Below are positions 6,952 to 23,195 of a stretch of DNA of 64,000 nt, in pieces (position 1 is the first letter of the stretch; each line of letters begins with the position of its first letter). The notes beneath the pieces were generated by a model. The model searched no databases. It had not been told where the DNA came from and was given only the letters and a program-made list of their open reading frames with translations. A program made the position numbers and the translations under genes. Source of the DNA: Patescibacteria group bacterium (GTDB lineage Bacteria; Patescibacteriota; Patescibacteriia; Buchananbacterales; UBA6539). Location of the stretch: NCBI GenBank assembly GCA_028688055.1, contig JAQTYZ010000004.1, forward strand, positions 33,021 to 97,020, read 5' to 3'.

Positions 6952-7700
6952 AGAAAGTTTTTATATTTAAACCAGTCTTCATTAATCTTAGCATCGATCT
7001 CATGCATCAATTTTTTGTTTTTTTGATAATTAGTTCTGATATTTTTTGAAAAATAATTAAATAAAATTTTATTTTTTGACCTAAAATAAATAAAAGATTC
7101 ATTAACATTTAAAAACACGGGGACCACATGGTGCTCAGGCATTGGGTTCCACCGTTTTGGTTCATTAAAAATGATAAAAGGTATACCTAAACGATTAAAC
7201 AAAACCCAATTTGGATAAAAAATTATAGCTACCCAATAATCTATTTTTTTTTCAATACTATATTGCATCAATTCCCTAGCGAGATTAAATGTAACCTCAT
7301 GTCCTCTACCTCTTTTTTGTTTGGAAACAATAAATCTCGATAATTCAACAACTGTGCCGCGCCTAATATACTCTGGTAAGTTTAAATATTCCTCTGCCTG
7401 AATTTTGTGATCACCCTTACCTAAAATTAAACGAGCGGTACCAACAATATTTCCATGGCTATCCCTAGTTATGAACGATATTGAATGTTGGTCATACTTA
7501 TCTTTCTCCCTATAATCCTCATAAAATTTAGCGTCTAAATAGTTTTTTTCAGTACAATAAACCTCATATCTCAATTTATATATATCATCATAATCTATGT
7601 CATTTTCTGCGATATAGGTTTTATATTCTTCCTTAATAAACCCAATACTACTGAGATAAAGCTTTAATGCATAATAAATTTTTTTTATATACCTCTTCAT
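6948..7700 (-). CDS. GNAT-fold N-acyltransferase, FeeM/N-acyl amino acid synthase-like (autoinducer-synthase-like).
   Basis: 250 aa. YKLRYEVYCTEKNYL ... GTARLILG resembles the exosortase-associated N-acyl amino acid synthase family. Its start overlaps the histidine kinase gene by 4 nt. Confidence 0.5.
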   Translation of the reverse strand: MKRYIKKIYYALKLYLSSIGFIKEEYKTYIAENDIDYDDIYKLRYEVYCTEKNYLDAKFYEDYREKDKYDQHSISFITRDSHGNIVGTARLILGKGDHKIQAEEYLNLPEYIRRGTVVELSRFIVSKQKRGRGHEVTFNLARELMQYSIEKKIDYWVAIIFYPNWVLFNRLGIPFIIFNEPKRWNPMPEHHVVPVFLNVNESFIYFRSKNKILFNYFSKNIRTNYQKNKKLMHEIDAKINEDWFKYKNFL

Positions 7701-7732
7701 TAAGAATTATCACTAAATTACTAAAAATTTTT

Positions 7733-8440
7733 CTACTTAGTGGCCGTATTTAGAATGGCTTGACCAGCATAAACAAATTTATCATCGGAAATATTTACAA
7801 AATGTGCACTGCGCATTAACTTAGCCTGCTCACCAGTCCTCATAAAATCATAATCACCAAATACACCCTCCTTTTTTATTAAATAATTATAATAAAACAT
7901 TAAAAAAGTTGGGTATGCCATTTTAGATACATTAATAAGTACATTCAATAAACTATGGACTCTGAATTCATTATTTAGATGAGACATATAAATTTTAAAT
8001 GGACTCCACCCCTCCTTCACGTTTGATACAACAACCATTCCACCCTTCTTTAAAACACGATAAAATTCTTCAAATATTTTTTTTCGTATCTCGGCGTTGA
8101 TGGTGTATATAACATTGTTACAAACAATACCATCAAAACTTTCATCTTCAAAAGGCAATCTACCATCAGAAAGATTAATTAGGTGGGTAGCAATATTACT
8201 ATTCTTATCCTTTATAATGTCTAAGGCTATATCGCTATTATCAAGCGCTGATACAGTTGCACCATTGTGCGCAAACGCAATCGCAAAATTGCCAGTACCA
8301 GCACCTACGTCTAAAATTTTTTTACCTTCAACATTACCAAAAATTGATAAAAACTCATTAATAAGATTTTGGTAAGGTATTACTATTTTTAAAACATCAT
8401 AGACGGAAAAATATTTTTTCCAAAATAAATTAGTAAGCAT
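7733..8440 (-). CDS. Class I SAM-dependent methyltransferase.
   Basis: ILDVGAGTGNFAIAFA glycine-rich motif I, then an acidic motif II (ALDNSD). Confidence 0.75.
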   Translation of the reverse strand: MLTNLFWKKYFSVYDVLKIVIPYQNLINEFLSIFGNVEGKKILDVGAGTGNFAIAFAHNGATVSALDNSDIALDIIKDKNSNIATHLINLSDGRLPFEDESFDGIVCNNVIYTINAEIRKKIFEEFYRVLKKGGMVVVSNVKEGWSPFKIYMSHLNNEFRVHSLLNVLINVSKMAYPTFLMFYYNYLIKKEGVFGDYDFMRTGEQAKLMRSAHFVNISDDKFVYAGQAILNTATK

Positions 8441-9113
8441 CTTTAAAAATTATTTGATTAACATACATTAAAATTGTAAAAACTGACATCGCGCCAATAA
8501 CCGAGGTATCAAACGTAGTAAAAAAATAAATTGACATACTAAATAAAACATTAAAAATTATTGTTACTAAAGTTCCTAAAACTATTTTTTTTATTTTTAA
8601 CTTATAAATTCCATCAATCGTATAATAAACTTTCAAAAGATTGACAAGTGCAGCAATTGAATAAATCAAAAAAGCAAGGATAAATATAAACAAACCTATT
8701 GGATTAATCGACGTATAAAAATATGGAAAAACACTAACAGCACTCAAGGAATATAAGCCTGGGACAAAAAAAGAAAATGACAAAACCATAGTTACAAAGT
8801 ACGCAATTAACGCTTTTACTTTCCTTCTATTAACTTCAAAAGGGTAGGTTAAAGTAAAAATATAAAAAAAATGAACGATTAACAGGCCAAAAAGAAAAGA
8901 AAAATTTTCAATAACTAAAAGGGTAATAAATCTAAAATTTAAAAAAGATAAAAAAAGATCAGCCAGCCAAAATGTCAATGCAAGCTGTGCCATTCCAAAA
9001 TTAAAATATATTGGCTTTCCTTTTGACTTTGACAATAGAATAATTGAATACAATAAACTGATCAAAGCCATTAATCCATCAAGATATATAGATAATGTAA
9101 ACAATAATTTCAT
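8430..9113 (-). CDS. Stand-alone multi-TM (about 7 TM) sensor-domain paralog, homologous to the N-terminal membrane domain of the 4693-6951 histidine kinase.
   Basis: 227 aa, all hydrophobic helices. It shares the (K/R)xK...YFxFG(M/L)Axxxxxxxx(W/F) pattern with its neighbours and with the kinase N-terminus. Confidence 0.6.
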   Translation of the reverse strand: MKLLFTLSIYLDGLMALISLLYSIILLSKSKGKPIYFNFGMAQLALTFWLADLFLSFLNFRFITLLVIENFSFLFGLLIVHFFYIFTLTYPFEVNRRKVKALIAYFVTMVLSFSFFVPGLYSLSAVSVFPYFYTSINPIGLFIFILAFLIYSIAALVNLLKVYYTIDGIYKLKIKKIVLGTLVTIIFNVLFSMSIYFFTTFDTSVIGAMSVFTILMYVNQIIFKDAY

Positions 9114-9129
9114 TAAATTATAATAAAAA

Positions 9130-9804
9130 TTAATCCTTAAATAAAATAGAATAAATGTAAAACAGAATTATAAAGGTAAAAAATATACCAATAGCGGTTA
9201 AATCAAAGTTAGTATAATAAAAATTTAAAAGACTAAATATAATATTTGACAGCACCACAAACGCTGATCCAACAATAATCTTTCTTAACTGAATTTTATA
9301 AATTCCTCCGCTTCCTTCGTAGCTAACAAACAAATTCTTGAACGACAGGGCAGAAAATAGAAAAAAATAAGTATTATAAATCGTCAGGTAAAATGGATTA
9401 ATTGTTCGGTATCTGAACGGAAAATTTGAATAGGCGGAAGTTATAAATTCGGGCCAAAAAGAAATAAAAGCAATAAAAATAACAATGCCATAAAAAAAAT
9501 AATATTTTGATTTAGGGGCAGCGTCAGGTACCGGAAAATTTCTAGTAAATAGGTAAAAGAAAATTAAAACCAAAGCTCCGGTTAGAAAACCCATTTGTGC
9601 GTGGAAAATGGGCGATAATGGAGTGAGTCTAAAATAATCAGAGAGAGTAAAGAGCATCCACAGACCCAGCACCAAAAGTGCCATCCCGAAATAATGAACC
9701 CCGCTACCCTTTCTTTTCAATAAAATATAGGACAAACAAAAACTGACAACCATTAAAATTACATTGATATATAGTATTACTGATAATAAATACTTTAAAA
9801 TCAT
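9130..9804 (-). CDS. Stand-alone multi-TM sensor-domain paralog.
   Basis: 224 aa. Closest to the 8430-9113 product (LLKRKGSGVHYFGMALLVLGLWM versus LLSKSKGKPIYFNFGMAQLALTFWL). Confidence 0.6.
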   Translation of the reverse strand: MILKYLLSVILYINVILMVVSFCLSYILLKRKGSGVHYFGMALLVLGLWMLFTLSDYFRLTPLSPIFHAQMGFLTGALVLIFFYLFTRNFPVPDAAPKSKYYFFYGIVIFIAFISFWPEFITSAYSNFPFRYRTINPFYLTIYNTYFFLFSALSFKNLFVSYEGSGGIYKIQLRKIIVGSAFVVLSNIIFSLLNFYYTNFDLTAIGIFFTFIILFYIYSILFKD

Positions 9805-9808
9805 AAAC

Positions 9809-10498
9809 TTACTTTATATAAAGTTTCTTATCCCCCAACAAAATAAACCAGGTTAAAACAATAACCATCGGCAAAGAAAGATATGCAACATACCATGGAT
9901 TATCAACCCCATAAATTAAAGGCAATATTACGCCCGGCAAAGTCCCAAAAATTGCCAATGATCCTGTAGCCAATAGTATAATTAAAGAATTTTTCTTTAT
10001 TAAACCTTGTGATTTAAAAAACTTTTTCATTAAAATATAAAATGCTATTAGCAAATACGAACAAAAAAATACTGAGTAATATACTCTGCCCGGCAGAGCG
10101 GAGCTAAAATTATTAAATGGGGGCATTAAAATAATATGATCCAAATATAAAGATGGGGTGATAATTATTATTATATCAATAAATAAACTAGCTACAATCA
10201 AAAATTTAAGATATGGCTTAATTTTAAATGATTGATATGGATAATAAATACAAAAAATAAAAAAGCTAACTGGAACCAATGATCCCGATAAGTTCTCAAA
10301 TATTGCCCAAAAAGTTGCCGCTGATAAATCAACCGATTCACGAAACATTGATTCTCCTAATGCCCATAATGCGAGAAGCATAAGGGATAATGCCAACATC
10401 AAATTGATCTTACTGTTTCTATTTCTCAACCATACCAATAAGCCGAGGAAAAAATTAAGAAAAGAAACTAAAATTTCACCAATGTTTATGGAATTCAT
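9809..10498 (-). CDS. Stand-alone multi-TM sensor-domain paralog.
   Basis: 229 aa. Aligns end-to-end with the 12220-12918 product. Confidence 0.6.
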   Translation of the reverse strand: MNSINIGEILVSFLNFFLGLLVWLRNRNSKINLMLALSLMLLALWALGESMFRESVDLSAATFWAIFENLSGSLVPVSFFIFCIYYPYQSFKIKPYLKFLIVASLFIDIIIIITPSLYLDHIILMPPFNNFSSALPGRVYYSVFFCSYLLIAFYILMKKFFKSQGLIKKNSLIILLATGSLAIFGTLPGVILPLIYGVDNPWYVAYLSLPMVIVLTWFILLGDKKLYIK

Positions 10499-10507
10499 AT
10501 CAAAATT

Positions 10508-10753
10508 TCACTTCAATTTTAATTTCATCGACAAAAATACTAGTCGAGCATGAAAATTCAACGAAAATTGAGTAGCCCTAAAATAATCTGAAAAAGACAT
10601 AAACATCCAAGTTAACAAAGCGACATTGGCTAATCCAAAACTAAAATAAATCTTAGTATTTTTAGCTCTGGAGATCAAAATTGAAGCTGTAATTAATAAT
10701 GCGAACATCATTGATGTATCAAGTAATAGTACCTCTTCAAAAAATAGTTTCAT
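10508..10753 (-). pseudogene. Internally deleted mini-paralog of the 7TM family (N-terminal helix fused to the C-terminal tail). Probably a pseudogene or mini-protein.
   Basis: 81 aa. The N-terminus (ISRAKNTKIYFSFGLANVALLTWMF) matches the paralogs. The C-terminal codons (VFLSMKLKLK) match the tail of the 12220-12918 product at DNA level. Confidence 0.4.
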
Positions 10754-10783
10754 AATAGATTAGTTATCCTTAATATTAAGAAT

Positions 10784-11908
10784 CTACCTAATCGACAAAT
10801 AACCAGCCCTCGTCCCTTGTTTCGAAAAAACTATCTGCCAAAGTTGTGTTTTCCTGGTTCTAAATAGAGCCGCCGAGGACAAAAGGTAATATTTCCACAT
10901 TCTATAAAATGTCTCATTGTAGCCTTCTTTTAAATTGTTCCAATTTTTATCAAAATTACTAAACCAGGCTAAAAGCGTTTTGTCGTAATCAAGACCAAAA
11001 TTATGCCAATCTTCCATAATAAATAATCCCTTCGACGACCGAATAATCTCTTCGGCAGCTGGTAACATTGAATTCGGGAAAATATACTTTAGTAACCAGG
11101 CATCCGAAATGGCTTTACTCTTGTTACATCCTATAGTGTGCAGTAAAAATAGTCCACCCATTTTCAAATTTTTATTCACAATAGACATATATGCTCTGTA
11201 ATTCTTGTTTCCAACATGTTCAAACATTCCTAAGGAAACAATATGATCAAACTTTTCATTAACCTCACGATAGTCTTGAAGTCGAATTTCTACCGGCAAA
11301 TCAGCACATATTCTATTACCTAAATCGACCTGCTCTTTTGAAACAGTTATTCCGACTACTGACACCCCATACTTTTCGGCTGCGTATTTTGCAAAACTGC
11401 CCCATCCGCAGCCAATATCTAAAATTTTTTGTCCTGACCTCAATTTTAACTTTCTGCACACCAAATCAAGTTTATTTTCCTGAGCTTCATCTATATTTTT
11501 AGCATCTTCCCAATATGCACACGTATAAACCATTCTTTTATCTAGCATTGCTTTATACAAATCATTTCCTATATCATAATGCTGCATACCGACATCAAAT
11601 GCATGGGAAACATCTTGTAAGTTTAAAAATTTTGCTCGAAAAATGCTAATAATTGTTTTCAAATTTTTTTTCAAATACTTATTAAGCCTGGCCTTAAAAA
11701 CTTTTTCGAAAAATTTGTCTAATTCCTTTACATCCCACCAACCAGCCATGTATGTTTCACCCATACCCAAAGTATTACCCGTCAAAAAACGCTGATAGAC
11801 CCTATCATCTTTAATTTGAATATCCCAAGACTTATCTCCGTTTACCTTAATTCCCGCTCCAGCAAGAAGCCCTTGGACTATTTTTTTATATTGGTTAAAA
11901 TTTATCAT
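10784..11908 (-). CDS. cfa: Cyclopropane-fatty-acyl-phospholipid synthase family methyltransferase.
   Basis: 374 aa. Collinear with E. coli Cfa across the catalytic core (LDIGCGWGSFAKYAAEKYGVSVVGITVS ... LQDYR ... FDHIVSLGMFEHVG ... LLHTIG ... YIFPN ... MEDWHNFG ... LWQIVFSK). Confidence 0.85.
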   Translation of the reverse strand: MINFNQYKKIVQGLLAGAGIKVNGDKSWDIQIKDDRVYQRFLTGNTLGMGETYMAGWWDVKELDKFFEKVFKARLNKYLKKNLKTIISIFRAKFLNLQDVSHAFDVGMQHYDIGNDLYKAMLDKRMVYTCAYWEDAKNIDEAQENKLDLVCRKLKLRSGQKILDIGCGWGSFAKYAAEKYGVSVVGITVSKEQVDLGNRICADLPVEIRLQDYREVNEKFDHIVSLGMFEHVGNKNYRAYMSIVNKNLKMGGLFLLHTIGCNKSKAISDAWLLKYIFPNSMLPAAEEIIRSSKGLFIMEDWHNFGLDYDKTLLAWFSNFDKNWNNLKEGYNETFYRMWKYYLLSSAALFRTRKTQLWQIVFSKQGTRAGYLSIR

Positions 11909-11949
11909 TTAGAATATATAACTTCTAATTATAATTAATAATTCATTTA

Positions 11950-12213
11950 TTAACCCCATCTTAACCTTGATGTCATCCATAAAAATACGTCCGCCATTAA
12001 AACTGGGTACAGCCAGACGATAAACTGACCGTAGAAATAAGTTCCGGTGAAATCAGCGACAAAATTGAAGATGCCACCGGCAAGACCGAAATTTAAATAA
12101 ACCTTATTGTTTTTAGATCTAGCAAGCAGTGTAAGAGATATAAAAAATGTTGCGACCATTAAAAAAATATCAACGAAAAAAATTCCAATTAATATATGCT
12201 TAAAAATATTCAT
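11950..12213 (-). pseudogene. Internally deleted mini-paralog of the 7TM family.
   Basis: 87 aa. The N-terminal helix (LARSKNNKVYLNFGLAGG) plus a C-terminal IVWLYPVLM segment match the two ends of the 12220-12918 product. Confidence 0.4.
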
Positions 12214-12219
12214 AATATT

Positions 12220-12918
12220 TCAAAACTTTATTTTAAATTTAATTTCATCAACAAAAATACCATAAGTCACAATTATCGGATATAGCCAAACAATAAAATC
12301 ACCATAGGGATAAATACCGAGCGTCTGAGGCAAAAAATTGGATCCTCCACCCAATGATAGTACAAGTGACCCAAGCAAAAGATAAAATGTCTTCTGCTTT
12401 ATTATGCCATCATTTGATGAATAAGCTACGTAAATCCAATAAATAGCCAAAAGCACATAAGCCCAGAAATAAACAATAAATAATGGATACCAACTGCCAG
12501 CATCGACCCAAGATGAAAAACCAAGTTTCGGCGATGAACCAGCAACTATTTTATCAGTAAAGCTCAAGGCTAAAAAAAATAAAGCTAAGAAATACCCTAA
12601 GCTTATTAAAACTATATTTTTTTTACTTCTAGCCTGATGGGTAAAACTCCAAATAAAATGTAAGAAAAAAATTGGGATAAAAGCGGCCGCCGCGTGTAAA
12701 ATTTTTGAGAAATAAACCCCTTCAGAACTCGTATCGCTCCCGATCAAAAAAAATAAACCGGTGGCCCAAAGTCCGATTGCAAGACAAAGTAAAAACCAAA
12801 ATTTTACCGTTAATGATTTTGGATTTTTTAAAATGCTAAACAGCCCTAATAGAAATGATAATACTGCCAGTAATCCGATACTAAATTCTAAAATTTGATT
12901 ACTCATCATAATTACCAA
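12220..12918 (-). CDS. Stand-alone multi-TM sensor-domain paralog. First gene of the minus-strand block.
   Basis: 232 aa. Homologous to the 9809-10498 product and to the kinase N-terminal domain. Confidence 0.6.
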   Translation of the reverse strand: MVIMMSNQILEFSIGLLAVLSFLLGLFSILKNPKSLTVKFWFLLCLAIGLWATGLFFLIGSDTSSEGVYFSKILHAAAAFIPIFFLHFIWSFTHQARSKKNIVLISLGYFLALFFLALSFTDKIVAGSSPKLGFSSWVDAGSWYPLFIVYFWAYVLLAIYWIYVAYSSNDGIIKQKTFYLLLGSLVLSLGGGSNFLPQTLGIYPYGDFIVWLYPIIVTYGIFVDEIKFKIKF

Positions 12919-13093: not shown

Positions 13094-16000
13094 TCACGGC
13101 AGCGCGGGGTAGTTTCGCACCTCCAGGTAATCAAGGTTGATAGGTGTTTGGTTACCCCACTCATACCAACTACCGATCTCGTGCGCTCCGGCGGTCAAAT
13201 TGACCACCAGACTTGCTTCACCCCAGACATCCCATTGGTCTGGTCCGAGACTTGGCAGTGTCAACGTGTCGACCAACTGTCCGTCGACATAGATGTTGCG
13301 TGTCGCGTCGTCACTAGTGCCGTTGGCGTACCGGAATACCAGTTGGTATTGGCCGGCTTCAGGAATGGCGAGGGTAAAGTCCGCGCCACGGTTAGGGCTG
13401 TCAAAACCGTCAGCGAATCCGGTACCGGAGTAACCCCAGTGACCGGTGTTGATGCCAAGGCCCGTCAGGGTCGCCGCTTCGGCTTCAAGATGTTCAATCG
13501 GTGTCGCGACTTCAGTGACTTCCAGCGCGTCAAGGTTGATCGCCCCACCGTTCATCCAGTCTTGGACTAAGCCAATGGTGTGAGCGCCAGCGGTTAAATT
13601 CACGAGCACTTCGCTGTTGCCCCAGACGTCCCAGCTACTGCCAAGACCGAGGAAGGTTTGACGACTAAAATAGTCACAGTCAAGATAGACATTGCGGGTG
13701 GCCGGACTGGGGTCACCCCGGCTGTAGCGGAAACGTAAACGATAGGTGGCGTTCATTGGAACAGTGACGGCGAAATCAACGGCGTCACCAACACTTTCAT
13801 ATTGGTCGACAAAACCACTGCCAACATAATCAACGTGGTCAGTATCAACTGCGGTGTTGGTTAGTGAGGCCGTTTCGGCTTCCAAGCGTTGCCACCAATT
13901 GGGCAGTTGGGTCACTTCGAGGTAATCAAGATTGATCGCCCCGCTGTCAGACCACTCCGACGACAATTCAATCGTGTGAACACCGGCCGTCAGTGACCCT
14001 AATTGTGACGCGGTGCTCCAATCATCCCAAGTGCCAAGACTGGGAAATACCAGCGAGCTAAAATACTCGCCGTCAATCCAGATATGGCGAACCGCCGCGT
14101 CTGGGTAACCATTGGCGTAGCCGAAATCAAAGCGGTAGGTTCCGGCCAGCGGGACGTTAACCGTGAAACTGACAACATCACCAAAGCTTTCGAATTCATC
14201 GACAAAACCAATACCGCTGAAACCAGCGTGATCGGTGTCAACCGCGACGTTAGTCAATGTCGCCGCTTCGGCTTCAGACCGCTGGTGGTACATCAGCGTT
14301 GGATTGTTGAGCGTCAGCAGACAATGGCTAACGTCATTGTCCGTTCTGACATTTTGGACTGCATTGTCCGTATTGACCACGAGCCTTAAGTCGTACTGGC
14401 CGCTGGGAATTGAGCTGAAATCCAGCGTCGTTTCCCAGACTTCCCGTACCGCCAGTTGCGGTGCGAGTAATGACGCCACTAATGTGTCGTCGAGATAGAC
14501 TTCGTAGCGAAACGACGCGCAAGTGCTGTTGGCTTCGTTGCTCAGCGTCAGCGGCACCGCTGACGCGTCCACGTTCATGGTTGCCGGCAAATCCGACGCC
14601 GGATCAGTGAAGCGCACCACTTGCAGGTAGTCTTGGAAACTTCGATTGATACCTAGTAGCCCCAAGCTTGGCATGTCGCCATCAGCTTCAAACCAAACAC
14701 TGACGGCGACACTGGACGACAATAGGTAATCACTTCCGGTATGGAAGGTAACCGTGCAGAGAAACACTGTTGAGTAAGGCGCGATGTACGAAGGCAGTTG
14801 GTAGGTATTGGAATCCAACGTTGCCCAACTGCTGTTCACGGCAATACCGGAGTGACTACCAACAAAGTCAGTAATCGGATCGGCCGTATTGTTGAAGATG
14901 TAGTACGTCCGGGTGTAGGTTTGGTTTGGCAACAGCACAACAGGGCTATCGTAAGTAACGATGCTGACGTTCTGTCCCAAGGTCAGTGCCGCGCTACCCG
15001 CAGCGAGCACTACGCCGGTGGCTGAATACGCCGACACGTGAACCGTGACGGTTTGGCCGTTGCTCAGGTTGTAAATCGTGCACTGGGCATTCTGGAAATT
15101 GTTGTAGAAACTGCCGTTGACGCTGACGCGGTAGTAGGCCGCGCCGGCAATCGTTAACCAACTGGCATCCAAAGACAAAGTGCGGGGCTGCAAGACAACC
15201 TGCAAATTTTGCAGGGCGGGAGCGACAGGCAAGGTAACGGTCACGGTCGACGAGGTCGCCAAAACATTAGCGTTACCATCAACGGCCTCCAGGTGATAGC
15301 TATGCGAGGAGCTGGGAGCCAGGTTGCTCACCGTGAAGTCGAGCGTGGCTGGATTCAAGGTGCCGAGGTACTGGTTGTCTTGATAGACGCGATAGTACGA
15401 CGTACCAGTGACCGCACTGCCAGACAGGTAGACGGTGGTTGATGAAGTCTCGTTGGCGTAGAGGTTGAGACTGGTACCGTTGCCGGGGATGGTGGCATAG
15501 TGAAAACCTGCACTTAATGTTCCACGAACATCACTGTAGCCATAGACGGTGTCATAGACTAGATAGCCGTTGGCCATCTTTTGGACTGCCAACTGATGAC
15601 CGTTATAGTCATCCGTCGCATATTTTTCCTCCTCAACGGGACCGCCAAGTGTTCCCGAAGACATTTGGATATTTGGCCCACCGTAGGCTCTGTAGAAATC
15701 CCAGAGTTGACCATGAATGACGAAGGCTTTACTCTGGCTATGCTGAGAATCATACACTATTGCACACCCATTCAGAGAATCACCAGAGAAATTCTGAATC
15801 CAGCAACTACCCCATTGATGCGCCGCGACAGGACTAGCGTTGTCTGATACTGGCTCACCGACGAGTGAAGCTTTACCATTATCGTTAAAACAACTCACGA
15901 TAACAGGAGAGAGATCAGGACGCCAACCATTAACGGTTTCTCCAGGGCAAACAGAGTTTGACCATCCAGAGATTATGATAGAGTTGTTAGCGGTTAGATA

Positions 16001-16828
16001 CATCACCGCATGGCGAAAATCTTGACGCCAACCACTTCCATCTGAATAGAGAGGCGTGACAGCAAAGCCATATGACGACTCTCCGCCGCCGTTGGCCCAG
16101 GCTTGTCTTAAAGCTGTGTCAACTGGGTAGCGTCCACAAATTATGGGGCTGATGGTTAACACTCGGTCTAATCCGACCGAGGAAGGTGTATAAATAACAC
16201 CTTGGCCTGAGGTAGTGCCATTCCAGGTGGTATTGATGTTACCAAATGGATCATTGACTACTATTCTATAGTCATCAGTATAGCCAATGATTACCAGGTA
16301 ATGGCCATAGGTACTGGCTAAGTGACCAATTAATGGTCTACCGGCATCAATCTCTGATTTGATGGTAGACATCAGGCTGGAATAGATCCAAGCGCTACCT
16401 GTCGTTAACCCATGACGCTGGAGATATTCTACCGATGCTGAAGCATCAGCTTTCCAATCACCATCAATGGGCTTAACGATATAGCCATGCGCACCATACA
16501 CTACATGAGGATTGGTGTCATTTGAAGGATTCCAATCCCTAGCCCAGCTAGTCGTGTAGTCTTCACCGCTGACATCAGTACATCCCGAATATGCGTTGTA
16601 GACATACCATCCTTTGTAGCTGGACGGGTTGTCCGGTTGTAGGCCGTAGTAGCTCGTAATCATCACCGCACTTGTCGGCGCACACGCATTGTAACCAAGA
16701 AAGTCACCCTGATTCATATCCTGAACTTGATGGATGTAGGGAACATCCAATGTTACTGCCGCCGAGACTGAGCGACACACACCGACCAACATCAAAGACA
16801 CTAACATGACCATCAACTTAGCTTTCAT
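13094..16828 (-). CDS. Large secreted multidomain protein: signal peptide, C39-like (papain-like) peptidase domain, Ig/FN3-like beta region, then three tandem CBM6/CBM35-like (galactose-binding-like) repeats of about 130 aa.
   Basis: 1244 aa. AGGAG RBS 8 nt upstream. The N-terminus has a signal peptide, then YIHQVQDMNQGDFLGYNACAPTSAVM (Cys nucleophile context) and a later His/Asp. The C-terminal repeats carry LEAEAATLTNxAVDTDHxGxxGxGFVDxFESxGDxVxFxVxVP ... YRxxFRYANG ... NLTAGxHTIxL ... INLDYLEV. GC content is far above the flanks. Confidence 0.7.
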   Translation of the reverse strand: MKAKLMVMLVSLMLVGVCRSVSAAVTLDVPYIHQVQDMNQGDFLGYNACAPTSAVMITSYYGLQPDNPSSYKGWYVYNAYSGCTDVSGEDYTTSWARDWNPSNDTNPHVVYGAHGYIVKPIDGDWKADASASVEYLQRHGLTTGSAWIYSSLMSTIKSEIDAGRPLIGHLASTYGHYLVIIGYTDDYRIVVNDPFGNINTTWNGTTSGQGVIYTPSSVGLDRVLTISPIICGRYPVDTALRQAWANGGGESSYGFAVTPLYSDGSGWRQDFRHAVMYLTANNSIIISGWSNSVCPGETVNGWRPDLSPVIVSCFNDNGKASLVGEPVSDNASPVAAHQWGSCWIQNFSGDSLNGCAIVYDSQHSQSKAFVIHGQLWDFYRAYGGPNIQMSSGTLGGPVEEEKYATDDYNGHQLAVQKMANGYLVYDTVYGYSDVRGTLSAGFHYATIPGNGTSLNLYANETSSTTVYLSGSAVTGTSYYRVYQDNQYLGTLNPATLDFTVSNLAPSSSHSYHLEAVDGNANVLATSSTVTVTLPVAPALQNLQVVLQPRTLSLDASWLTIAGAAYYRVSVNGSFYNNFQNAQCTIYNLSNGQTVTVHVSAYSATGVVLAAGSAALTLGQNVSIVTYDSPVVLLPNQTYTRTYYIFNNTADPITDFVGSHSGIAVNSSWATLDSNTYQLPSYIAPYSTVFLCTVTFHTGSDYLLSSSVAVSVWFEADGDMPSLGLLGINRSFQDYLQVVRFTDPASDLPATMNVDASAVPLTLSNEANSTCASFRYEVYLDDTLVASLLAPQLAVREVWETTLDFSSIPSGQYDLRLVVNTDNAVQNVRTDNDVSHCLLTLNNPTLMYHQRSEAEAATLTNVAVDTDHAGFSGIGFVDEFESFGDVVSFTVNVPLAGTYRFDFGYANGYPDAAVRHIWIDGEYFSSLVFPSLGTWDDWSTASQLGSLTAGVHTIELSSEWSDSGAINLDYLEVTQLPNWWQRLEAETASLTNTAVDTDHVDYVGSGFVDQYESVGDAVDFAVTVPMNATYRLRFRYSRGDPSPATRNVYLDCDYFSRQTFLGLGSSWDVWGNSEVLVNLTAGAHTIGLVQDWMNGGAINLDALEVTEVATPIEHLEAEAATLTGLGINTGHWGYSGTGFADGFDSPNRGADFTLAIPEAGQYQLVFRYANGTSDDATRNIYVDGQLVDTLTLPSLGPDQWDVWGEASLVVNLTAGAHEIGSWYEWGNQTPINLDYLEVRNYPALP
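15322..15620. repeat. Copy 1 of a roughly 300-bp, about 94%-identical duplicated segment, lying inside the large secreted-protein gene.
   Basis: Direct alignment with 17840-18138 shows identical runs of 69 and 85 bp. Flanking homology continues at lower identity. Confidence 0.85.
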
Positions 16829-16982
16829 TGTACCAACTCCTTGTTGTTTGCCCTAAGACACAATCTTCACTTTTCAAAGAACTGACGTATAGGTTCATAC
16901 AGGAACCTTGATTGCCGCTATACAAAAAACATAGCATCGCACCAAACAAGGTGACTGTCGCGCTATGTTTTTTATTTATGTT

Positions 16983-17702
16983 TTAATTTATGTATTCTAT
17001 AGTTTGTAGAAAATTATTTTCAAGATTCTCTTTTCCATTAACACTTATATAATCATAATAGATATAATCGGAATCCGTCACATAAGGAGGTGCCTCAACT
17101 TTTTTGGAATAAACTAAATAATACATCTTTCCAATAAAGACACCAGCATGCTGACACATTTGACATGGACCAGACTGATCTGTAGTTTTGCAAGGCTGAC
17201 AAGGGCCATATTGGATAGCCAACTGATATGCATCAATATTATTATTCTGACCAACCAAAACTTTTGTGCGACTAATTAATTTGGTAGGTTCTCCAAAATC
17301 TTGTTTCCAGCCATACTTCACAATATAATCCTCAAGATTATCAGCGACCGGAAAAGCATCCCTAATGCTGCCTAAATGCATATATAGCGGCGTTGATGAC
17401 TTATCGTTATAACTTATATCAATGCTCGAACGGTCAGTTATAACATAAAGTTTATCATCCTTATCCTCAAACCTAAACTTAATTCCCCAATCTTTATTAG
17501 TATACGTTTTCCAACCATCCGCATCTTTAGTCAAAGTTATGTTTTCTTCCTTTAAGTCTGCAGTACTACTTGAAGTGTTAACATTTTGATTCACCGACTC
17601 ATTGGTATTAATCTTAACTGGTGGTTTTTTGTAGCATCCCGAAAGAATCGTGCTAAGGGCAAGGACGGTGAGTGTAAAAATTGTTAGTTTAAATTTGGAC
17701 AT
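16983..17702 (-). CDS. Lipoprotein, paralog A of three.
   Basis: 239 aa. Signal peptide with an LSGC lipobox, and a WKTYTNKDWGIKFRFEDK motif shared with the 19079-19723 and 22116-22769 products. Confidence 0.7.
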   Translation of the reverse strand: MSKFKLTIFTLTVLALSTILSGCYKKPPVKINTNESVNQNVNTSSSTADLKEENITLTKDADGWKTYTNKDWGIKFRFEDKDDKLYVITDRSSIDISYNDKSSTPLYMHLGSIRDAFPVADNLEDYIVKYGWKQDFGEPTKLISRTKVLVGQNNNIDAYQLAIQYGPCQPCKTTDQSGPCQMCQHAGVFIGKMYYLVYSKKVEAPPYVTDSDYIYYDYISVNGKENLENNFLQTIEYIN

Positions 17703-17732
17703 AATTTTGTAAAAAATAAAGCGCTTGAAGCG

Positions 17733-18917
17733 CTATGTTGGTAAAATGATGTTGTAGTAATTATCATCAGTAAATATATAGTGTTTAGGATAAAGTGTCA
17801 ACGGCCACGAGATAGTAGGTGGGGTTGAGCTTGGAGCTAGGTTGCTCACCGTGAAGTCGAGCGTGGCTGGATTCAAGGTACCGAGATACTGGTTGTCCTG
17901 ATAGACGCGATAGTACGACGTACCAGTGACTGCACTACCGGACAAGTAGACAGTGGTTGGTGATTGGGCCGTGGCGTAGAGGTTGAGACTGGTACCGTTG
18001 CCGGGGATGGTGGCATAGTGAAAACCTGCACTTAATGTTCCACGAGCATCGCTGTAGCCATAGACGGTGTCATAGACTAGATAGCCGTTGGCCATCTTTT
18101 GGACTGCCAACTGATGACCGTTATAGTCATCCGTCGCGTAGCGTTCTTGGTCGACTGGACCACCTAAATAACCAAGTACTGAAGTGTTGGCCTTAATGAA
18201 GTACCACAGTTGATTGTGGACTACGAACGCCTGGTTCGGGCTGTTAACAGTGTCATACAAAATGGCACATTCACCCAACGTGCCACCACTGAACATCTGG
18301 AACAGACAATTTGACACATTGGGCCAAACACTGACACGCCCGTCTGTGAAAGGCACCTCTAAATTAGCAACGGTGCATCCGATTTTTATGTTGTCACCGT
18401 TAGTGTGATAACAACACAAAAATTCCTTACAGTTGCTTCCATCCTGATTTCTGCCAACCATTAAACGGTAGAAATAAACTTGGTGATTAGGCTTTGTAGA
18501 GACGTAGGCATATGGGTCCCAATTATGATCCCTCACTTTAAAATCCTGGGGATCACTATAGTTGGAATCTACTACTTCATAGTAGCTTCCACTAATACCT
18601 GCGTAGACAGCGGAATGATAGATGTAGTAATCATCCCACTCATAGTTAATAGTTGGATTACTGGTCTGGATGATGTCACCAGACTGCAGAACCGATACTT
18701 CTGTAAAGCCTGCATCTAGATAGCAGTCATGATATCCAGCTCCCAGGGTACCCCCAATCTGACCAATAACAAACTGCACAAACTCCTTACAGGACCAGCC
18801 GTATTGACCAACATACGTCTTTGCCTTGTCAGCAATGTTGATGTTGGTCTGGGCAAACGCTTGACCAATACACATCATTATGACACAAACAAAAAAAACA
18901 ATCTGCTTATTTTTCAT
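17733..18917 (-). CDS. Secreted CHAP/NlpC-P60-like cysteine peptidase or amidase domain protein. Its C-terminal beta region is shared with the 13094-16828 protein.
   Basis: Start moved to MKNKQIVFF (AAGGAAGG RBS). Signal peptide, then a GWSCKEFVQ Cys and YHSAVY His (CHAP-like). A C-terminal roughly 130 aa is near-identical to an internal segment of the large protein. Confidence 0.6.
   Translation of the reverse strand: MKNKQIVFFVCVIMMCIGQAFAQTNINIADKAKTYVGQYGWSCKEFVQFVIGQIGGTLGAGYHDCYLDAGFTEVSVLQSGDIIQTSNPTINYEWDDYYIYHSAVYAGISGSYYEVVDSNYSDPQDFKVRDHNWDPYAYVSTKPNHQVYFYRLMVGRNQDGSNCKEFLCCYHTNGDNIKIGCTVANLEVPFTDGRVSVWPNVSNCLFQMFSGGTLGECAILYDTVNSPNQAFVVHNQLWYFIKANTSVLGYLGGPVDQERYATDDYNGHQLAVQKMANGYLVYDTVYGYSDARGTLSAGFHYATIPGNGTSLNLYATAQSPTTVYLSGSAVTGTSYYRVYQDNQYLGTLNPATLDFTVSNLAPSSTPPTISWPLTLYPKHYIFTDDNYYNIILPT
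17840..18138. repeat. Copy 2 of the duplicated segment, lying inside the CHAP-like gene.
   Basis: See copy 1. Confidence 0.85.
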
Positions 18918-19078
18918 CACACACCTTCCTTTCAAGTTGTCAAAGTTCATCATCTCCCTCTTTTTGCCACAAGGCATCAAGAGAAAAGCCCTCAACCTAG
19001 AGGACTTCTCAAAATAATAGATAGCACTATTACTTAGAGAAACACTCTAAGAAATGCGCTATGTTGATTATAAAAAAA

Positions 19079-19723
19079 TTATTTTACTAGCTGAAAGGAT
19101 TTAACTAAGTCATTATATACTTCTAAGTCTTTATCTAACTGATCAACATCAGTATTATCATACCTTCGGTGGAATCTAAGAACAACATAGATATTTTTAT
19201 TTGGAACATTAACGGAAGTATCTACTATTCTGATCCATATATTTGGGATAGTACTACCCTCAGGATCTTTGTAAGGTAGATCTCCGGATATTTTAACAAA
19301 ATTATTTCCGTTAGCAACAACTTCTTTTTCTACCACGTTGGTGATAATAGACATTTGTGATTCATTCAATGTATTTGGGCTATCTCCAATAGATACAGAA
19401 ATTTTTGCGTCTGGCAAATTAACATTACACGCAACTTTTGTATCAGATAAAATTAATAGGTTATCATAAGTATTTTGATCACAGCTATCTAGATACCACT
19501 GGAGTGGATACTTAAACTCAAACCCATACTCATCGTTTCTGTAAGTTTTCCAATCTGATGTATTGATATCGGCAGTGGTTGTTGCACTATTAGTATTTTG
19601 ATCAGCATTCACATTCTGCCCTTCAACATTGCTCAGGGTGACTGGTTTTTTATAACACCCCGAAACCACCGTGCTGACAGCAAGGACTATGAGGGTAAAA
19701 ATTGTTAGTTTAAGCTTGGTCAT
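19079..19723 (-). CDS. Lipoprotein, paralog B.
   Basis: 214 aa. VSGC lipobox, DWKTYRNDEYGFEFKYPLQW motif. Confidence 0.7.
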   Translation of the reverse strand: MTKLKLTIFTLIVLAVSTVVSGCYKKPVTLSNVEGQNVNADQNTNSATTTADINTSDWKTYRNDEYGFEFKYPLQWYLDSCDQNTYDNLLILSDTKVACNVNLPDAKISVSIGDSPNTLNESQMSIITNVVEKEVVANGNNFVKISGDLPYKDPEGSTIPNIWIRIVDTSVNVPNKNIYVVLRFHRRYDNTDVDQLDKDLEVYNDLVKSFQLVK

Positions 19724-19890
19724 ATTTTTGTAAAAAATAAAGCGCTCTAGGCGCTATGTCATTAAAACGATGTTGTAGTAATTATCATCAGTAAATATAT
19801 AGCGTGTGATCTAAAAAGTCAACGGCCACGAGATAGTAGGTGTGGGTTGAGCTGGGAGCTCGGTTGCTCACCATGAAATTGAGCGTGGTC
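19724..19890. repeat. Truncated third copy of the duplicated unit (the 3' end of a secreted-enzyme gene plus the intergenic terminator region).
   Basis: 19724-19817 matches 17703-17810 (ttttgtaaaaaataaagcgc...gatgttgtagtaattatcatcagtaaatatatag). 19818-19890 matches 17811-17880, the 3' end of the CHAP-like gene and the start of the identical block. Homology then breaks off abruptly. Confidence 0.7.
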
Positions 19891-19916
19891 GGCTAAATTC
19901 TTTGGTTTATAAATTT

Positions 19917-20432
19917 TCATAAATCATCGTGATCTTTCAAAACTTTATAATCATGCAAATTAATTCCGTATTTTTCATAAACCATTTTTGTTGTAATGGG
20001 AAAATGTTTTACATAACCCATTCTTTTTATTGCCTCTAACACCGCTGACTTGCTGCCACCTTCAATTTCGATATAGGGAGGAATCATTGGCCATTCTTCA
20101 ATGGTAATTTCCACATCATTCCATCTACAACTTTGTTCATAATTATATTGCTCAGCTATTAATTCACACCCCAATACTTTTAATAATTTAGCGGCTTTTT
20201 CAGGATTAACTTCAAATTCAAATTCTTCAATACCACCAATAGTATAAGTTTTATAATTTTTATAACTTAAAGTGTTATCTATTATTCTAATCCAGGCTTT
20301 GTCTTCTTTATTTGGGAGATCAAACACTAAACGCTTAATTAATCTTCGAGATGTAAACACTGCTCCATCTAGTTTTTCCTTTAATGAAGCAATGTCGATG
20401 TCTAATATTTTTGTTTCAAATTCTAAATCCAT
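19917..20432 (-). CDS. CYTH-domain protein (triphosphate tunnel metalloenzyme, class IV adenylyl cyclase-like).
   Basis: LEFETKILDIDIASLKEKL (ExExK-type N-terminal motif) ... IEIEGGS. An ATG at 20432 is preferred. An alternative GTG start at 20483 would add 17 aa. Confidence 0.6.
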   Translation of the reverse strand: MDLEFETKILDIDIASLKEKLDGAVFTSRRLIKRLVFDLPNKEDKAWIRIIDNTLSYKNYKTYTIGGIEEFEFEVNPEKAAKLLKVLGCELIAEQYNYEQSCRWNDVEITIEEWPMIPPYIEIEGGSKSAVLEAIKRMGYVKHFPITTKMVYEKYGINLHDYKVLKDHDDL

Positions 20433-20488
20433 AACATAATAAAGGGCAGGAGAAAGGAGACAGCTTCCTCTCTCCTGCCTCACGGTTA

Positions 20489-21403
20489 TTAGAGTTTGAG
20501 TCTATCGGCAACCAGTTGACCGCATCCGACCTTAATGTCCTTCATCGGGCCAAAGACGTAGGCGTTAGCGCCGGCTTCTTGAGCACAGCTCAGGAGCTGA
20601 TGATGCTGCGATTCTCCAACGCATCTCAAGCCATGAGCATCAGAACAATCCGTCGCATTGAGGAAGGAAAGCTTGAATTCAGAGCCATCCAATACTCCGC
20701 ATTGTTTCAGCCGTTCAACGGTACCCCTAACTACCTCTTCGTTGTCGTTGAACCCGGCAATGCAGATGAAATTGAATTTGATGCGGATATCAGGTCGCAA
20801 AGTCTTGATCTCACGGACCGCCAGCAGAACCTGCTCGGAATCGTAACCATTCCTATTGCCGAGAATATGTTTCAACTGGTCATTCTCGTAATGAGGGAAG
20901 GTCACTTGTAGTGCCTCCCAATTCGGGATCTCACGAGCTAATAATAACATACCCTCCGGCCTTGCGCCCATCGTTGAGATTTTAAACCTTGAGCCGGGAT
21001 AAAGCCCTAGGATCTCTTGGGCCGATGCGATGACCACTTTCGGTATCAGTGAAGATTCACCAATACCTTGATAGCAAAAATGCTTCGGCACTTCATCGTG
21101 CTCGGCCAAATCTGCCAAACAACAGGCCTGCTCGACAATCTCCTCGACGCTCAATAAAGACGCTTTGCCAAGATTGCCACTAGCGCAAAAAAGACAGCCA
21201 ATCGGGCATCCGAACATACTGGAGACTTCAATGGCATACCTGATCGGAACACCGTCATGCCTTTGCTCGTAAATCGAGCCTTCAATCATCTTGCCTGTCC
21301 GCCGGACCTTAAAAACGTAACGTCTTGCCCGCTGGCCATTGAAACACCGGCCAACATACGGATAGGCATCTTCAAACCGTTGCACGATCTCCATTGTCTT
21401 CAT
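20489..21403 (-). CDS. RlmN/Cfr-family radical SAM enzyme (RNA adenosine C2/C8 methyltransferase-like) lacking the N-terminal HhH domain.
   Basis: 304 aa. VSSMFGCPIGCLFCASGNLG matches VSSQVGCALGCTFCATG of RlmN, and YQGIGESS matches MGMGEPL. ISTMG and GCGQLVAD are also conserved. About 52% GC versus about 30% for the next gene downstream. Confidence 0.65.
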   Translation of the reverse strand: MKTMEIVQRFEDAYPYVGRCFNGQRARRYVFKVRRTGKMIEGSIYEQRHDGVPIRYAIEVSSMFGCPIGCLFCASGNLGKASLLSVEEIVEQACCLADLAEHDEVPKHFCYQGIGESSLIPKVVIASAQEILGLYPGSRFKISTMGARPEGMLLLAREIPNWEALQVTFPHYENDQLKHILGNRNGYDSEQVLLAVREIKTLRPDIRIKFNFICIAGFNDNEEVVRGTVERLKQCGVLDGSEFKLSFLNATDCSDAHGLRCVGESQHHQLLSCAQEAGANAYVFGPMKDIKVGCGQLVADRLKL

Positions 21404-21590
21404 TGCTCACACTCCTTTAACTAAAGGACATCACCTCCTCCCTTGCTTTAGGGTTAAGAGGCCAAGCCTTCCCCAATGGAAAACTTTTCTAAAAATAAAA
21501 CACAGCATTTTATTCTTAGAAAAAATTTCCAAGAATTTGCGCTATGTCGATTAAATTTATAAATTGAGTTTTTTAAATTTGTTTTGGCGT

Positions 21591-22007
21591 TTAAGCGTGA
21601 CTAGATTTTATTAATCCTTTCCGTAACATTCTTTTGGCATTCGGCCAGATAAAATTATAATTATCCAAATCATCGGCAGCCACCCATTCCATTTTACTAT
21701 GTTCATGGCTCAAACTTATCTGGTCATTATCATTTTTTATTAAATAAGCCACACCGCTGTAAGGTTTACCTGAAGACGAATACCAAACATCAAAATCGAT
21801 TAAATCAATGATCTCAAAATCAGACAAATTCAATTCCTCTTTAATTTCTCTTCTAAAGGCGGCTTCGCCATTTTCTTTTTCATCAATTCTTCCTCCCGGC
21901 AATCCCCAGTAACCGCGCCGGTCCGAAAATTCTAAAACTAAACATTTGTTATTTCTGACTAAAACTGCCACTTGGCTGATCGTAAATTTTTCAAATTTTT
22001 TATTCAT
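21591..22007 (-). CDS. NUDIX hydrolase.
   Basis: Nudix box GLPGGRIDEKENGEAAFRREIKEELNL. Confidence 0.85.
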   Translation of the reverse strand: MNKKFEKFTISQVAVLVRNNKCLVLEFSDRRGYWGLPGGRIDEKENGEAAFRREIKEELNLSDFEIIDLIDFDVWYSSSGKPYSGVAYLIKNDNDQISLSHEHSKMEWVAADDLDNYNFIWPNAKRMLRKGLIKSSHA

Positions 22008-22115
22008 AGATCTAAAAAATATGTACAGTCATACTCTTAGAGAAAGTCTCCAAAATGCGCTATGTATAGTTAAACTATCCTACACAAATTTTAAATTAAA
22101 ATTAAAATAAAAAAA

Positions 22116-22769
22116 TTAATTAATAAATCTAAAGGAATCTATTAACCCAAAATAAACTTTATCAATTTCAGCATTAATTTCCTTCGAGCCAAGATTTACT
22201 TTAGATATTGAATATTGTTTATAATTCTTAAAAATATCAGTTTCAACCCCTAAATAATCAGAACTTTGGACTGCATGGTCGCTTCTTTCAATTGATACTT
22301 CTTTGACAACACCCCCTCTATTGTCTTTTATATTGATTAAGTCACTCCTCCAATTATTAAAGGAAAAATCACGACTAATACTAATAACATTTATACTTAT
22401 CAAATAAGTAATGGATCCCTCAAGAGCATAAGAATTTCGACTATCTCTAAATTCAACAATGCCAGAAGAGCTTATTTTATATTCCCAACTTTTAGGATAT
22501 TTAAATTCAAACCCATACTGATCATTTCGGTAAGTCTTCCAACTTGGAGTATCAATCTCAGCCGTGGTAGTGGAAGTATCGGCATTAACATTTTCATTCA
22601 GATTAACATTCTGATTCTCATTCTGGATTCCCGTCGGCACGGGAATGACAGCGTTGGTATTAGTATTTGTATTGTCATTCTGAACTTGTTTCAGAATCTG
22701 ACACCCCGAAACCACCGTGCTGACAGCAAGGACTATGAGGGTAAAAATTGTTAGTTTAAGCTTGGACAT
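22116..22769 (-). CDS. Lipoprotein, paralog C.
   Basis: 217 aa. VSGC lipobox, SWKTYRNDQYGFEFKYPKSWEY motif. Confidence 0.7.
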   Translation of the reverse strand: MSKLKLTIFTLIVLAVSTVVSGCQILKQVQNDNTNTNTNAVIPVPTGIQNENQNVNLNENVNADTSTTTAEIDTPSWKTYRNDQYGFEFKYPKSWEYKISSSGIVEFRDSRNSYALEGSITYLISINVISISRDFSFNNWRSDLINIKDNRGGVVKEVSIERSDHAVQSSDYLGVETDIFKNYKQYSISKVNLGSKEINAEIDKVYFGLIDSFRFIN

Positions 22770-22964: not shown

Positions 22965-23195
22965 CTACGCCCGACTCAATAAACGGCACTCTAGCGTATT
23001 GCCGTTTGGTAATTTGACTGTCACCTGACTCGGATAACGCTTGCCTAGCAACGCCCTGGCCAAAGGCGACAGATAGGAAATGACGCCGTGTTTCGGATCG
23101 CCGGTCGGCACGTCAACAATTTCCAGCTCCCTTATCGCACCGTCCAAAATCACTTTAACTTTGTCGCCGATATTAACTGTATAGTTGCTACTCAT
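22965..23195 (-). CDS. Small GreA/GreB C-terminal-domain-like protein.
   Basis: 76 aa. ISYLSPLARALLGKRYPSQVTVKLPNG resembles the GreA C-terminal FKBP-like domain (SPIGKALLGK...). Confidence 0.5.
   Translation of the reverse strand: MSSNYTVNIGDKVKVILDGAIRELEIVDVPTGDPKHGVISYLSPLARALLGKRYPSQVTVKLPNGNTLECRLLSRA

Follow-up and report, generated by a model that had tools for sequence, protein, structure and literature searches.

A radical S-adenosylmethionine (SAM) protein of RlmN/Cfr type, truncated at its N-terminus and referred to here as rSAM, is encoded next to a CYTH protein, a triphosphate tunnel metalloenzyme (TTM), on contig JAQTYZ010000004.1 of a Patescibacteria group bacterium (positions 33,021 to 97,020 of the forward strand; this whole 64-kb stretch is the window, and coordinates count from its first letter). 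The two genes very probably constitute a conserved functional module that is distinct from rlmN. The sequence-only reading of this DNA had allowed for a reduced rlmN next to unrelated genes, an account that several results do not support: the protein falls below the RlmN and Cfr cutoffs, has neither the N-terminal domain nor an equivalent of Cys118, belongs to a separate clade and has a gene of this one CYTH subfamily beside it in five further distinct loci. The rSAM gene is not an rlmN orthologue. The three adjacent, co-directional genes described by that reading are indeed so arranged, with the correction that all of them lie on the minus strand:

19917..20435, minus strand: CYTH/TTM gene, 172 codons with the initiator, assigned by subfamily profile, AlphaFold2 (AF2) model and Foldseek
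20489..21403, minus strand: truncated RlmN/Cfr-type radical SAM gene (rSAM), 304 aa, assigned by Pfam, NCBIfam, alignment to Protein Data Bank (PDB) entries, AF2 model and Foldseek
21591..22007, minus strand: NUDIX hydrolase gene, 138 aa, assigned by Pfam, NCBIfam and the PADLOC model PDC-S07; lies upstream of the pair and is not conserved with it

The radical SAM protein and its CYTH partner

The rSAM protein matches the Pfam Radical_SAM family (6.6e-9), and its best NCBIfam matches are to RlmN (TIGR00048) at 48.9 bits against a cutoff of 290, with the Cfr models at 45.8-47.8 bits against cutoffs of 468-550; the viperin family is not among its NCBIfam matches. The alignment covers positions 81-342 of the 355 in the RlmN model, and the N-terminal domain (PF21016, HhH2-like and RNA-binding) is therefore absent, as had been noticed from the sequence together with the similarity to RlmN/Cfr. 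Sequence matches in the PDB are to Cfr (9p0p, 2.7e-10) and to an RlmN-like protein (6fz6, 1.7e-8). The cluster motif is C66-x3-C70-x2-C73. Seven residues before its first cysteine, HMMER alignments place Glu59 at the position of RlmN Cys118 and Cfr Cys105 (EVSSMFGC versus CISSQCGC), and the same residue is aligned with the RlmN-like cysteine of 6fz6. Towards the C-terminus, Cys294 (VGCGQL) aligns with the methyl-carrying cysteine, Cys355 of RlmN and Cys338 of Cfr (AACGQL), and the only cysteines that do not vary over nine close homologues are Cys294 and the three ligands of the cluster. The AF2 model (pLDDT 95.5) has E. coli RlmN and 6fz6 as its best Foldseek matches, with TM scores of 0.76-0.79, followed at ~0.53 by viperin and the pyruvate formate-lyase activating enzyme and at ~0.5 by LipA. 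The protein thus has a class A methyl-synthase core, but the RNA-binding N-terminal domain is missing and a carboxylate stands where the resolving cysteine would be.

As a single sequence the CYTH protein reaches 12.7 bits (E 0.11) against Pfam CYTH (PF01928), for which the gathering cutoff is 23.2. A profile built from it and three homologues recovers 12 subfamily clusters at 221-315 bits, and beyond the subfamily the same profile matches generic CYTH proteins at no more than 149 bits (1e-38 to 1e-25); these generic matches bear PF01928, and several are named class IV adenylate cyclase. A profile of 43 sequences matches TTMs in the PDB at ~1e-11. The N-terminus, MDLEFETK, bears the ExExK motif (E5, E7 and K9), and R35, R50, K59, E71, E123 and E125 are invariant across the 43 sequences. 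Foldseek searches with the AF2 model (pLDDT 93.5) return 7nsf, 7nsd, 2dc4, 1yem, 3n0z and 2fjt at a probability of 1.0 and TM scores of ~0.7, and the model superposes on the Sulfolobus acidocaldarius TTM, Pyrococcus CYTH proteins, the Yersinia pestis class IV cyclase and thiamine triphosphatase. From its sequence and predicted fold, the protein is a genuine TTM whose catalytic residues are intact. With CyaB and the TTMs of known structure (the S. acidocaldarius TTM, 7ns8-7nsf, and the Y. pestis class IV cyclase, 2fjt and 3n0z) it shares ExExK, the tunnel Arg, Lys and Glu residues and the predicted tunnel fold; unlike them it falls in a distinct subfamily, scores below the Pfam gathering threshold when taken singly and belongs to a group found consistently beside a truncated rSAM. 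The start of the gene, for which a GTG at 20483 had been among the candidates and is unlikely, is more plausibly the ATG at 20435, as placed by homologues and by the NCBI annotation (171 aa, P0016).

The pairing recurs outside the window. A word-indexed search with rSAM returned nine clusters, one being the window protein itself, and in the other loci an ORF (open reading frame) of 179-189 aa without a Pfam match lies directly upstream of the rSAM gene, often overlapping it, and is 43-52% identical to the window CYTH. A search begun from the CYTH subfamily added the CYTH-then-rSAM pairs of L147 and L148/149, the rSAM of L148/149 being 51% identical to that of the window, and a local hidden Markov model (HMM) search places CYTH beside rSAM in L001/L002, L003, L004-6, L067 (the same as L147), L148/149 and the window. 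The distinct loci outside the window thus number five (L001/L002, L003, L004-6, L147 and L148/149), with L007 left out of the count because only 76 nt lie upstream of its rSAM. The two families are of similar extent, at about 12 clusters for the CYTH subfamily and about 11 for rSAM, the latter among 5.8 billion proteins. A 188-aa ORF before the rSAM of L154 was considered as a further CYTH and rejected (hhalign probability 0.3, no match to a 120-sequence CYTH HMM, no Pfam match).

The wider Glu/Asp clade

The rSAM protein belongs, on the strength of profile comparisons, to a large separate clade for which no description was found in the literature searched. An exhaustive profile search of 1.84 billion representatives gave 85 clusters at E<=1e-30, rising to 1078 at E<=1e-10, and an alignment of 156 sequences was assembled from the 148 matches listed outside the members from the candidate phyla radiation (CPR), together with eight CPR members. 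At the Cys118 position this alignment has Glu in 95 sequences, Asp in 39 (134/156 acidic) and Cys in 16; all but one of the Cys-type sequences sit in the lowest-scoring tail (E ~1e-23 or weaker), where canonical-length RlmN begins, and the exception, P0174 (8e-41), is a 263-aa protein whose match starts at residue 9. The equivalent of Cys294 is kept in 143 of 144 alignable sequences. A 61-sequence profile scores the family at 248-363 bits and canonical RlmN at no more than 117, and clade members carry PF04055 only, whereas canonical RlmN also carries PF21016. Family-specific motifs are Q166, N211, N219-D220, K244, S246, N249 and T251. With RlmN and Cfr (TIGR00048, TIGR04432) rSAM has in common the fold, the placement of CxxxCxxC and the C-terminal CGQL cysteine; what separates it from them, besides the scores far under the equivalog cutoffs and the missing PF21016, is the replacement of the resolving cysteine (C118/C105) by Glu in rSAM and by Glu or Asp across the clade, and an association, through pairing or fusion, with nucleotide-processing and defence-type domains in place of the stand-alone housekeeping gene.

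The fusions differ between the two acidic types. N-terminal extensions occur on 25 Glu-type members, and those tested (P0141, P0149 and P0150) carry a MazG NTP-pyrophosphohydrolase domain; another subgroup has an N-terminal region with two transmembrane segments. Thirteen Asp-type members carry C-terminal extensions, and SIR2_2 was found in 5/5 scanned (P0170, P0182, P0211 and P0214 among them), one of which also has a sub-threshold STALD SLOG domain. Both of the two such proteins scanned against PADLOC match its ThsA model, at 6.7e-26 and 1.3e-23.

Gene neighbourhoods in the wider clade point in a similar direction. At L151 4562-9900 (and likewise in L152 and L153) a 608-aa MazG-rSAM fusion forms a three-gene operon with an AAA_23/SMC-like ATPase and a PNP_UDP protein of 686 aa, with a CBASS CD-NTase and a transposase adjoining, and another operon comprises a Ham1-like protein joined to a P-loop kinase, a 188-aa protein, rSAM, CHAT and a Dam methylase, with an integrase adjoining. 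The co-directional, overlapping operon of L068 (4341-9585) encodes a second radical SAM protein (398 aa), a class III nucleotide cyclase fusion (489 aa), a 289-aa transmembrane protein, a Glu-type rSAM and a thymidylate-kinase-like P-loop protein. At L158 137-2426, and on the contig of P0153, an Asp-type rSAM, a protein of ~250 aa (248 aa) without a family match and a SLOG protein of the LDcluster4 family (5e-17) form a trio, followed in L158 by RelE, MqsA, UPF0175 and Unstab_antitox toxin-antitoxin genes. As a side observation, the transmembrane protein of L068 appears fused to rSAM in proteins of ~570-600 aa such as P0223.

The clade was sought in mobile elements as well. In phage genomes tblastn gave only matches of 25-30%, of which the two examined have Gly or Cys and not Glu/Asp at the key position, a scan of viral contigs gave no relative of the CPR clade, and plasmids gave no members, P0182 matching there through its SIR2 part only and the MazG-rSAM protein P0149 not at all. 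The two loci, both from large phages, are L156 3881-4843 (Moorella phage MTATph1) and L157 3959-4846 (a 462-kb uncultured phage); they code for short radical SAM proteins of RlmN type in which Gly or Cys occupies the Cys118 position, and the copy of MTATph1 is divided into two ORFs and adjoins thymidylate synthase. Neither PADLOC v2 nor Pfam nor NCBIfam holds a clade-specific model. Full-text searches of the literature turned up no link between CYTH and radical SAM, between radical SAM and SLOG or ThsA, or between RlmN-like proteins and phage defence, and an earlier mention is still possible. The Ophion rSAM system was considered as a match and set aside on account of its different architecture.

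Proposed role and competing explanations

The sequence-only reading had also raised a mosaic nucleotide-modification or signalling module. Part of this stands, in that the pair is conserved and the relatives of rSAM are joined to nucleotide-processing and defence genes; the mosaic composition is confined to the window, and NUDIX is not part of the module. To our knowledge, no class A radical SAM methyltransferase other than RlmN and Cfr has been characterised, and RNA is the substrate of both. The partners seen across the clade either act on the phosphate chain of nucleotides (MazG, Ham1, NUDIX, CYTH, kinases, cyclase) or sense or degrade nucleotides (SLOG, SIR2, PNP), and mainly for this reason a free nucleotide is the suggested substrate. 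The chances appear about even that the pair is a module of conflict or signalling type that modifies free nucleotides.

Under this proposal, SAM would methylate Cys294 by the methyl-synthase chemistry of RlmN and Cfr, and a 5'-deoxyadenosyl radical would then activate the methyl group for addition to a purine at an sp2 carbon, which by analogy would be C2 or C8 of adenine. Glu59 would serve as the base that resolves the methylene-bridged adduct, and the substrate would be a free adenine nucleotide rather than rRNA or tRNA. The CYTH protein would cyclise or hydrolyse the triphosphate of the substrate or product nucleotide, and the modified product could act as a signal or as an antiviral analogue. 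The specific methylated-adenine-nucleotide chemistry is put forward tentatively.

Two known systems offer points of comparison. Prokaryotic viperins (pVips) are radical SAM enzymes that make antiviral 3'-deoxy-3',4'-didehydro-nucleoside triphosphates (ddhNTPs), and they often occur with nucleotide kinases. The likeness to them is one of functional analogy only, through radical SAM chemistry on free nucleoside triphosphates, accompanying kinases and NTPases and conflict-type contexts, and by this analogy a class A radical SAM core may have been redeployed in the manner of viperin-type nucleotide modifiers; unlike the pVips, rSAM is of another radical SAM family (TM score ~0.53 to viperin versus 0.78 to RlmN), from which C-methylation and not dehydration would be expected. 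Type I Thoeris pairs a ThsA SIR2-SLOG effector with a ThsB TIR signal generator. The Asp-type relatives fused to ThsA-like SIR2-SLOG modules (PADLOC ThsA at the 6.7e-26 given above; Pfam SIR2_2 and STALD) resemble the effector, with the differences that the radical SAM domain is N-terminal to the ThsA-like module in these fusions and that the window has no SIR2, SLOG or TIR. No TIR gene was seen near a SIR2-SLOG fusion on one short contig. In the most far-reaching version of the proposal, which is possible and on balance doubtful, the truncated Glu/Asp-type enzymes would be a class of nucleotide C-methyl synthases not recognised before, making methylated adenine nucleotides (for example 2- or 8-methyl derivatives of ATP, cAMP or ADPR) that serve in immune signalling or as antiviral analogues; rSAM would take the place of the Thoeris TIR generator in the SIR2-SLOG fusions, and in Patescibacteria CYTH would cyclise or trim the nucleotide in a minimal two-gene version.

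Several observations weigh against a free-nucleotide module of this kind. Substrate and product are read from genomic context, cyclase and triphosphatase are indistinguishable from the CYTH sequence, and the loss of Cys118 might abolish methyl-synthase chemistry instead of adapting it. A scan against PADLOC-DB v2 gave no meaningful match for rSAM and none for CYTH. L008, a more distant Saccharibacteria member of the rSAM family (35% identity), has no CYTH neighbour, and the terminator-like hairpin between the two genes in the window speaks against their tight co-transcription there. The Patescibacteria pairs have as neighbours either housekeeping genes (SecY/Adk/Map/RuvX/RecO, guanylate kinase, TrpRS, PGK) or a 7TM-kinase signalling cluster, and neither effector nor known defence genes were found beside them in the loci examined; their role in these organisms could accordingly be signalling or nucleotide metabolism and not defence.

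The alternative of a reduced housekeeping RlmN, still methylating A2503 of rRNA and/or A37 of tRNA beside an unrelated CYTH and NUDIX, can draw on the retained RlmN fold and methyl-carrying cysteine, on loci that lie among translation and housekeeping genes (those for aminoacyl-tRNA synthetases included) and on a tblastn search with canonical RlmN proteins that found no canonical rlmN within the 64-kb window. It is nevertheless very improbable given a score of 49 bits where the equivalog cutoff is 290, the absence of PF21016 and of a Cys118 equivalent, the rarity in CPR of a clade with only those ~11 clusters, the MazG or SIR2-SLOG fusions of relatives and the consistent pairing with one CYTH subfamily, which persists even after gene order has been rearranged. 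The nearest structures to CYTH are small-molecule TTMs and class IV cyclases and not Cet1, which bears on a second possibility, namely an RNA 5'-end module in which CYTH would be a Cet1-like RNA triphosphatase, NUDIX would be RppH-like and rSAM would methylate an adenine at or near the 5' end. RNA triphosphatases do exist in the CYTH superfamily, the NUDIX protein weakly matches RNA pyrophosphohydrolase models (~30 bits) and the parent family of rSAM works on RNA; the lack of an RNA-binding N-terminal domain in rSAM, the lack of conservation of NUDIX with the pair and the partners of the relatives (MazG, Ham1, nucleotide kinases, cyclase, PNP, SLOG), which act on free nucleotides, leave it with little probability.

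A different radical chemistry on a nucleotide is also conceivable, with viperin-like dehydration, cross-linking or cyclisation in place of methylation and CYTH supplying or processing a triphosphate substrate. Cys118 is essential for RlmN turnover, and its C118A variant traps the covalent adduct (PDB 5hr6, which is among the Foldseek matches of rSAM, is this cross-linked form); the acidic replacement of Cys118 throughout the clade and the family-specific motifs listed above, from Q166 to T251, could be taken as signs of such a change. The near-universal retention of the CGQL cysteine (143/144) would be hard to explain if methyl transfer had been lost, and this chemistry is considered unlikely.

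Should the proposal of a free-nucleotide module be correct, a sizeable sister clade, recruited repeatedly beside nucleotide-processing enzymes and SIR2, SLOG, PNP or CHAT effectors, would extend class A radical SAM methyl chemistry from RNA to free nucleotides. Immune or signalling modules based on nucleotides would then seem to include a new kind. The proposal also raises the mechanistic question of how a methylene cross-link is resolved without a second cysteine. The defence and signalling repertoires of the Patescibacteria are poorly known, and here the rSAM-CYTH pair offers a candidate that is small and open to testing.

Composition, rearrangement and neighbours in the window

Further features of the window bear on how the pair came to its present arrangement:

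19724..19890, minus strand: recombination scar, a ~89% copy of the 3' end of a 420-aa ORF and the spacer before a lipoprotein gene, from sequence comparison
20445..20479, minus strand: GC-rich hairpin, 13/14 bp with a 7-nt loop, then a U-rich tract, from fold energy and terminator score
20445..21478, minus strand: GC-rich island of ~1.03 kb with a leader bearing a Shine-Dalgarno sequence, the rSAM ORF and the 3' hairpin, from composition
21477..21547, minus strand: AT-rich 24-bp hairpin (21477-21531) and ACATAGCGC element (21539-21547) in the spacer between NUDIX and rSAM, terminator-like

The composition of the pair is uneven. The rSAM ORF has 49.5% GC and a GC content at third codon positions (GC3) of 0.544, CYTH has 30.3% GC and a GC3 of 0.214, and NUDIX has a GC3 of 0.324; relative to the mean GC3 of 0.405 (sd 0.093) over 59 long ORFs of the window, rSAM lies at about +1.5 sd and CYTH at about -2 sd. 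A sliding GC profile of 60 nt delimits the GC-rich block at ~20445-21478, with both edges sharp, and the gene within it has a Shine-Dalgarno AAGGAG at 21417..21412 inside its 75-nt leader. The abrupt break and the ~30% GC of CYTH had been recognised from the sequence, where the rSAM gene was put at 52%. The hairpin at the junction had likewise been seen, as a 12-bp structure; its stem is of 14 bp (13/14 paired), its arms (20445-20458 and 20466-20479) lie between the rSAM stop and CYTH start codons, at the GC break, and it is followed by CUUUAUUAU. It was scored as terminator-like, with an RNA minimum free energy of -28.8 kcal/mol (z = -5.4 against shuffles). On its 3' side the GC-rich block is bounded by this hairpin, which for the rSAM cassette is probably either an intrinsic terminator or an element that stabilises the 3' end. 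The AT-rich hairpin and the ACATAGCGC element on the other side of rSAM suggest that NUDIX is a separate transcription unit and, with hairpins in both spacers, the three genes look like separate or at most read-through units.

The window also differs from other loci in its gene order, with rSAM upstream of CYTH where elsewhere CYTH comes first, and in the GC3 gap within the pair, 0.33 as compared with 0.09 or less. Downstream of CYTH, about 25 nt past its stop codon, begins a segment (19724-19890) that is ~89% identical to 17703-17870, the 3' end of the 420-aa ORF and the spacer before the lipoprotein gene; this is a recombination scar at the place that rSAM occupies in other genomes. Three paralogous PsbP_2-like lipoproteins are encoded on the minus strand (16983-17702, 19079-19723 and 22116-22769), and the 5' ends coding for the signal peptides of the second and third are almost identical, forming direct repeats that bracket the NUDIX-rSAM-CYTH block. 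No convincing direct repeats or target-site duplications flank the GC-rich cassette itself.

The GC-rich block of ~1.03 kb is read as an rSAM cassette of xenologous origin that includes a ribosome-binding site and a terminator hairpin of its own. The mosaic composition and the reversed order together are consistent with one partner having been replaced by a xenologue at the same site. An original rSAM downstream of CYTH may have been lost in a rearrangement at the scar, and a foreign rSAM cassette, GC-rich and bearing its own terminator, would then have been retained upstream as an in-situ replacement. The identity matrices of rSAM and CYTH are roughly congruent and give no evidence as to which partner is foreign. 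Replacement in situ, if it took place, suggests selection to keep the pair together and functions that need each other.

The ACATAGCGC element has six exact copies on the minus strand within 16960-22065 and another at 22870 on the plus strand. Each minus-strand copy is intergenic and opens a hairpin with a T-run after it, the 3' arms differing between copies. Over the whole window, copies counted with one mismatch allowed are no more frequent than expected by chance; the exact copies form a tight cluster and look like a local family of terminator-like or REP-like (repetitive extragenic palindromic) intergenic elements.

The NUDIX gene adjoins the pair in the window only, among the loci compared, and the trio of radical SAM, CYTH and NUDIX envisaged by the sequence-only reading does not hold as a unit, NUDIX being set apart by its own hairpins and absent beside the pair elsewhere. 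Its product matches Pfam PF00293 (2.7e-16, 60.2 bits against a cutoff of 21.1) and the PADLOC candidate model PDC-S07 (1.5e-15), and its Nudix box, GGRIDEKENGEAAFRREIKEELNL (GX5EX7REUXEEXGU), read by eye, is intact save for a Gly to Asn change at the penultimate position. As a third conserved component NUDIX was rejected: L007 alone has a NUDIX gene nearby, two genes downstream of rSAM and past a flavodoxin-like gene, and it is unrelated to that of the window (BLASTP E 0.15). The flavodoxin-like gene (FMN_red/Flavodoxin_2, L007 1027-1563) lies immediately 3' of the rSAM homologue and is plausibly a dedicated reductant for the [4Fe-4S] cluster.

In the window, L001 and L004, the pair lies 0-7 kb from a cluster encoding HisKA_7TM proteins, a methyltransferase, a FeeM/autoinducer-synthase-like enzyme and a 7TM-GAF histidine kinase, a closeness that may reflect synteny or a functional link. 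This low-GC cluster (window 4693-12918, minus strand; L001 274-5283; L004 2071-7950) abuts the CYTH-rSAM pair in the two other genomes and holds several stand-alone HisKA_7TM proteins, cyclopropane-fatty-acid-synthase-like and UbiE-type methyltransferases, the FeeM/autoinducer-synthase-like acyltransferase and the histidine kinase; it may be a locus for the production and sensing of a lipid signal. Elsewhere on the minus strand of the window, a 1244-aa ORF (13094-16828) with 52% GC, as against ~40% for the window, contains Peptidase_C39_2, CARDB and three CBM35/CBM6 domains and is probably a surface or secreted protein, and a GC-rich 76-aa ORF (22965-23195, GC3 0.58) consists of the C-terminal domain of GreA/GreB alone (Pfam 1.8e-13).

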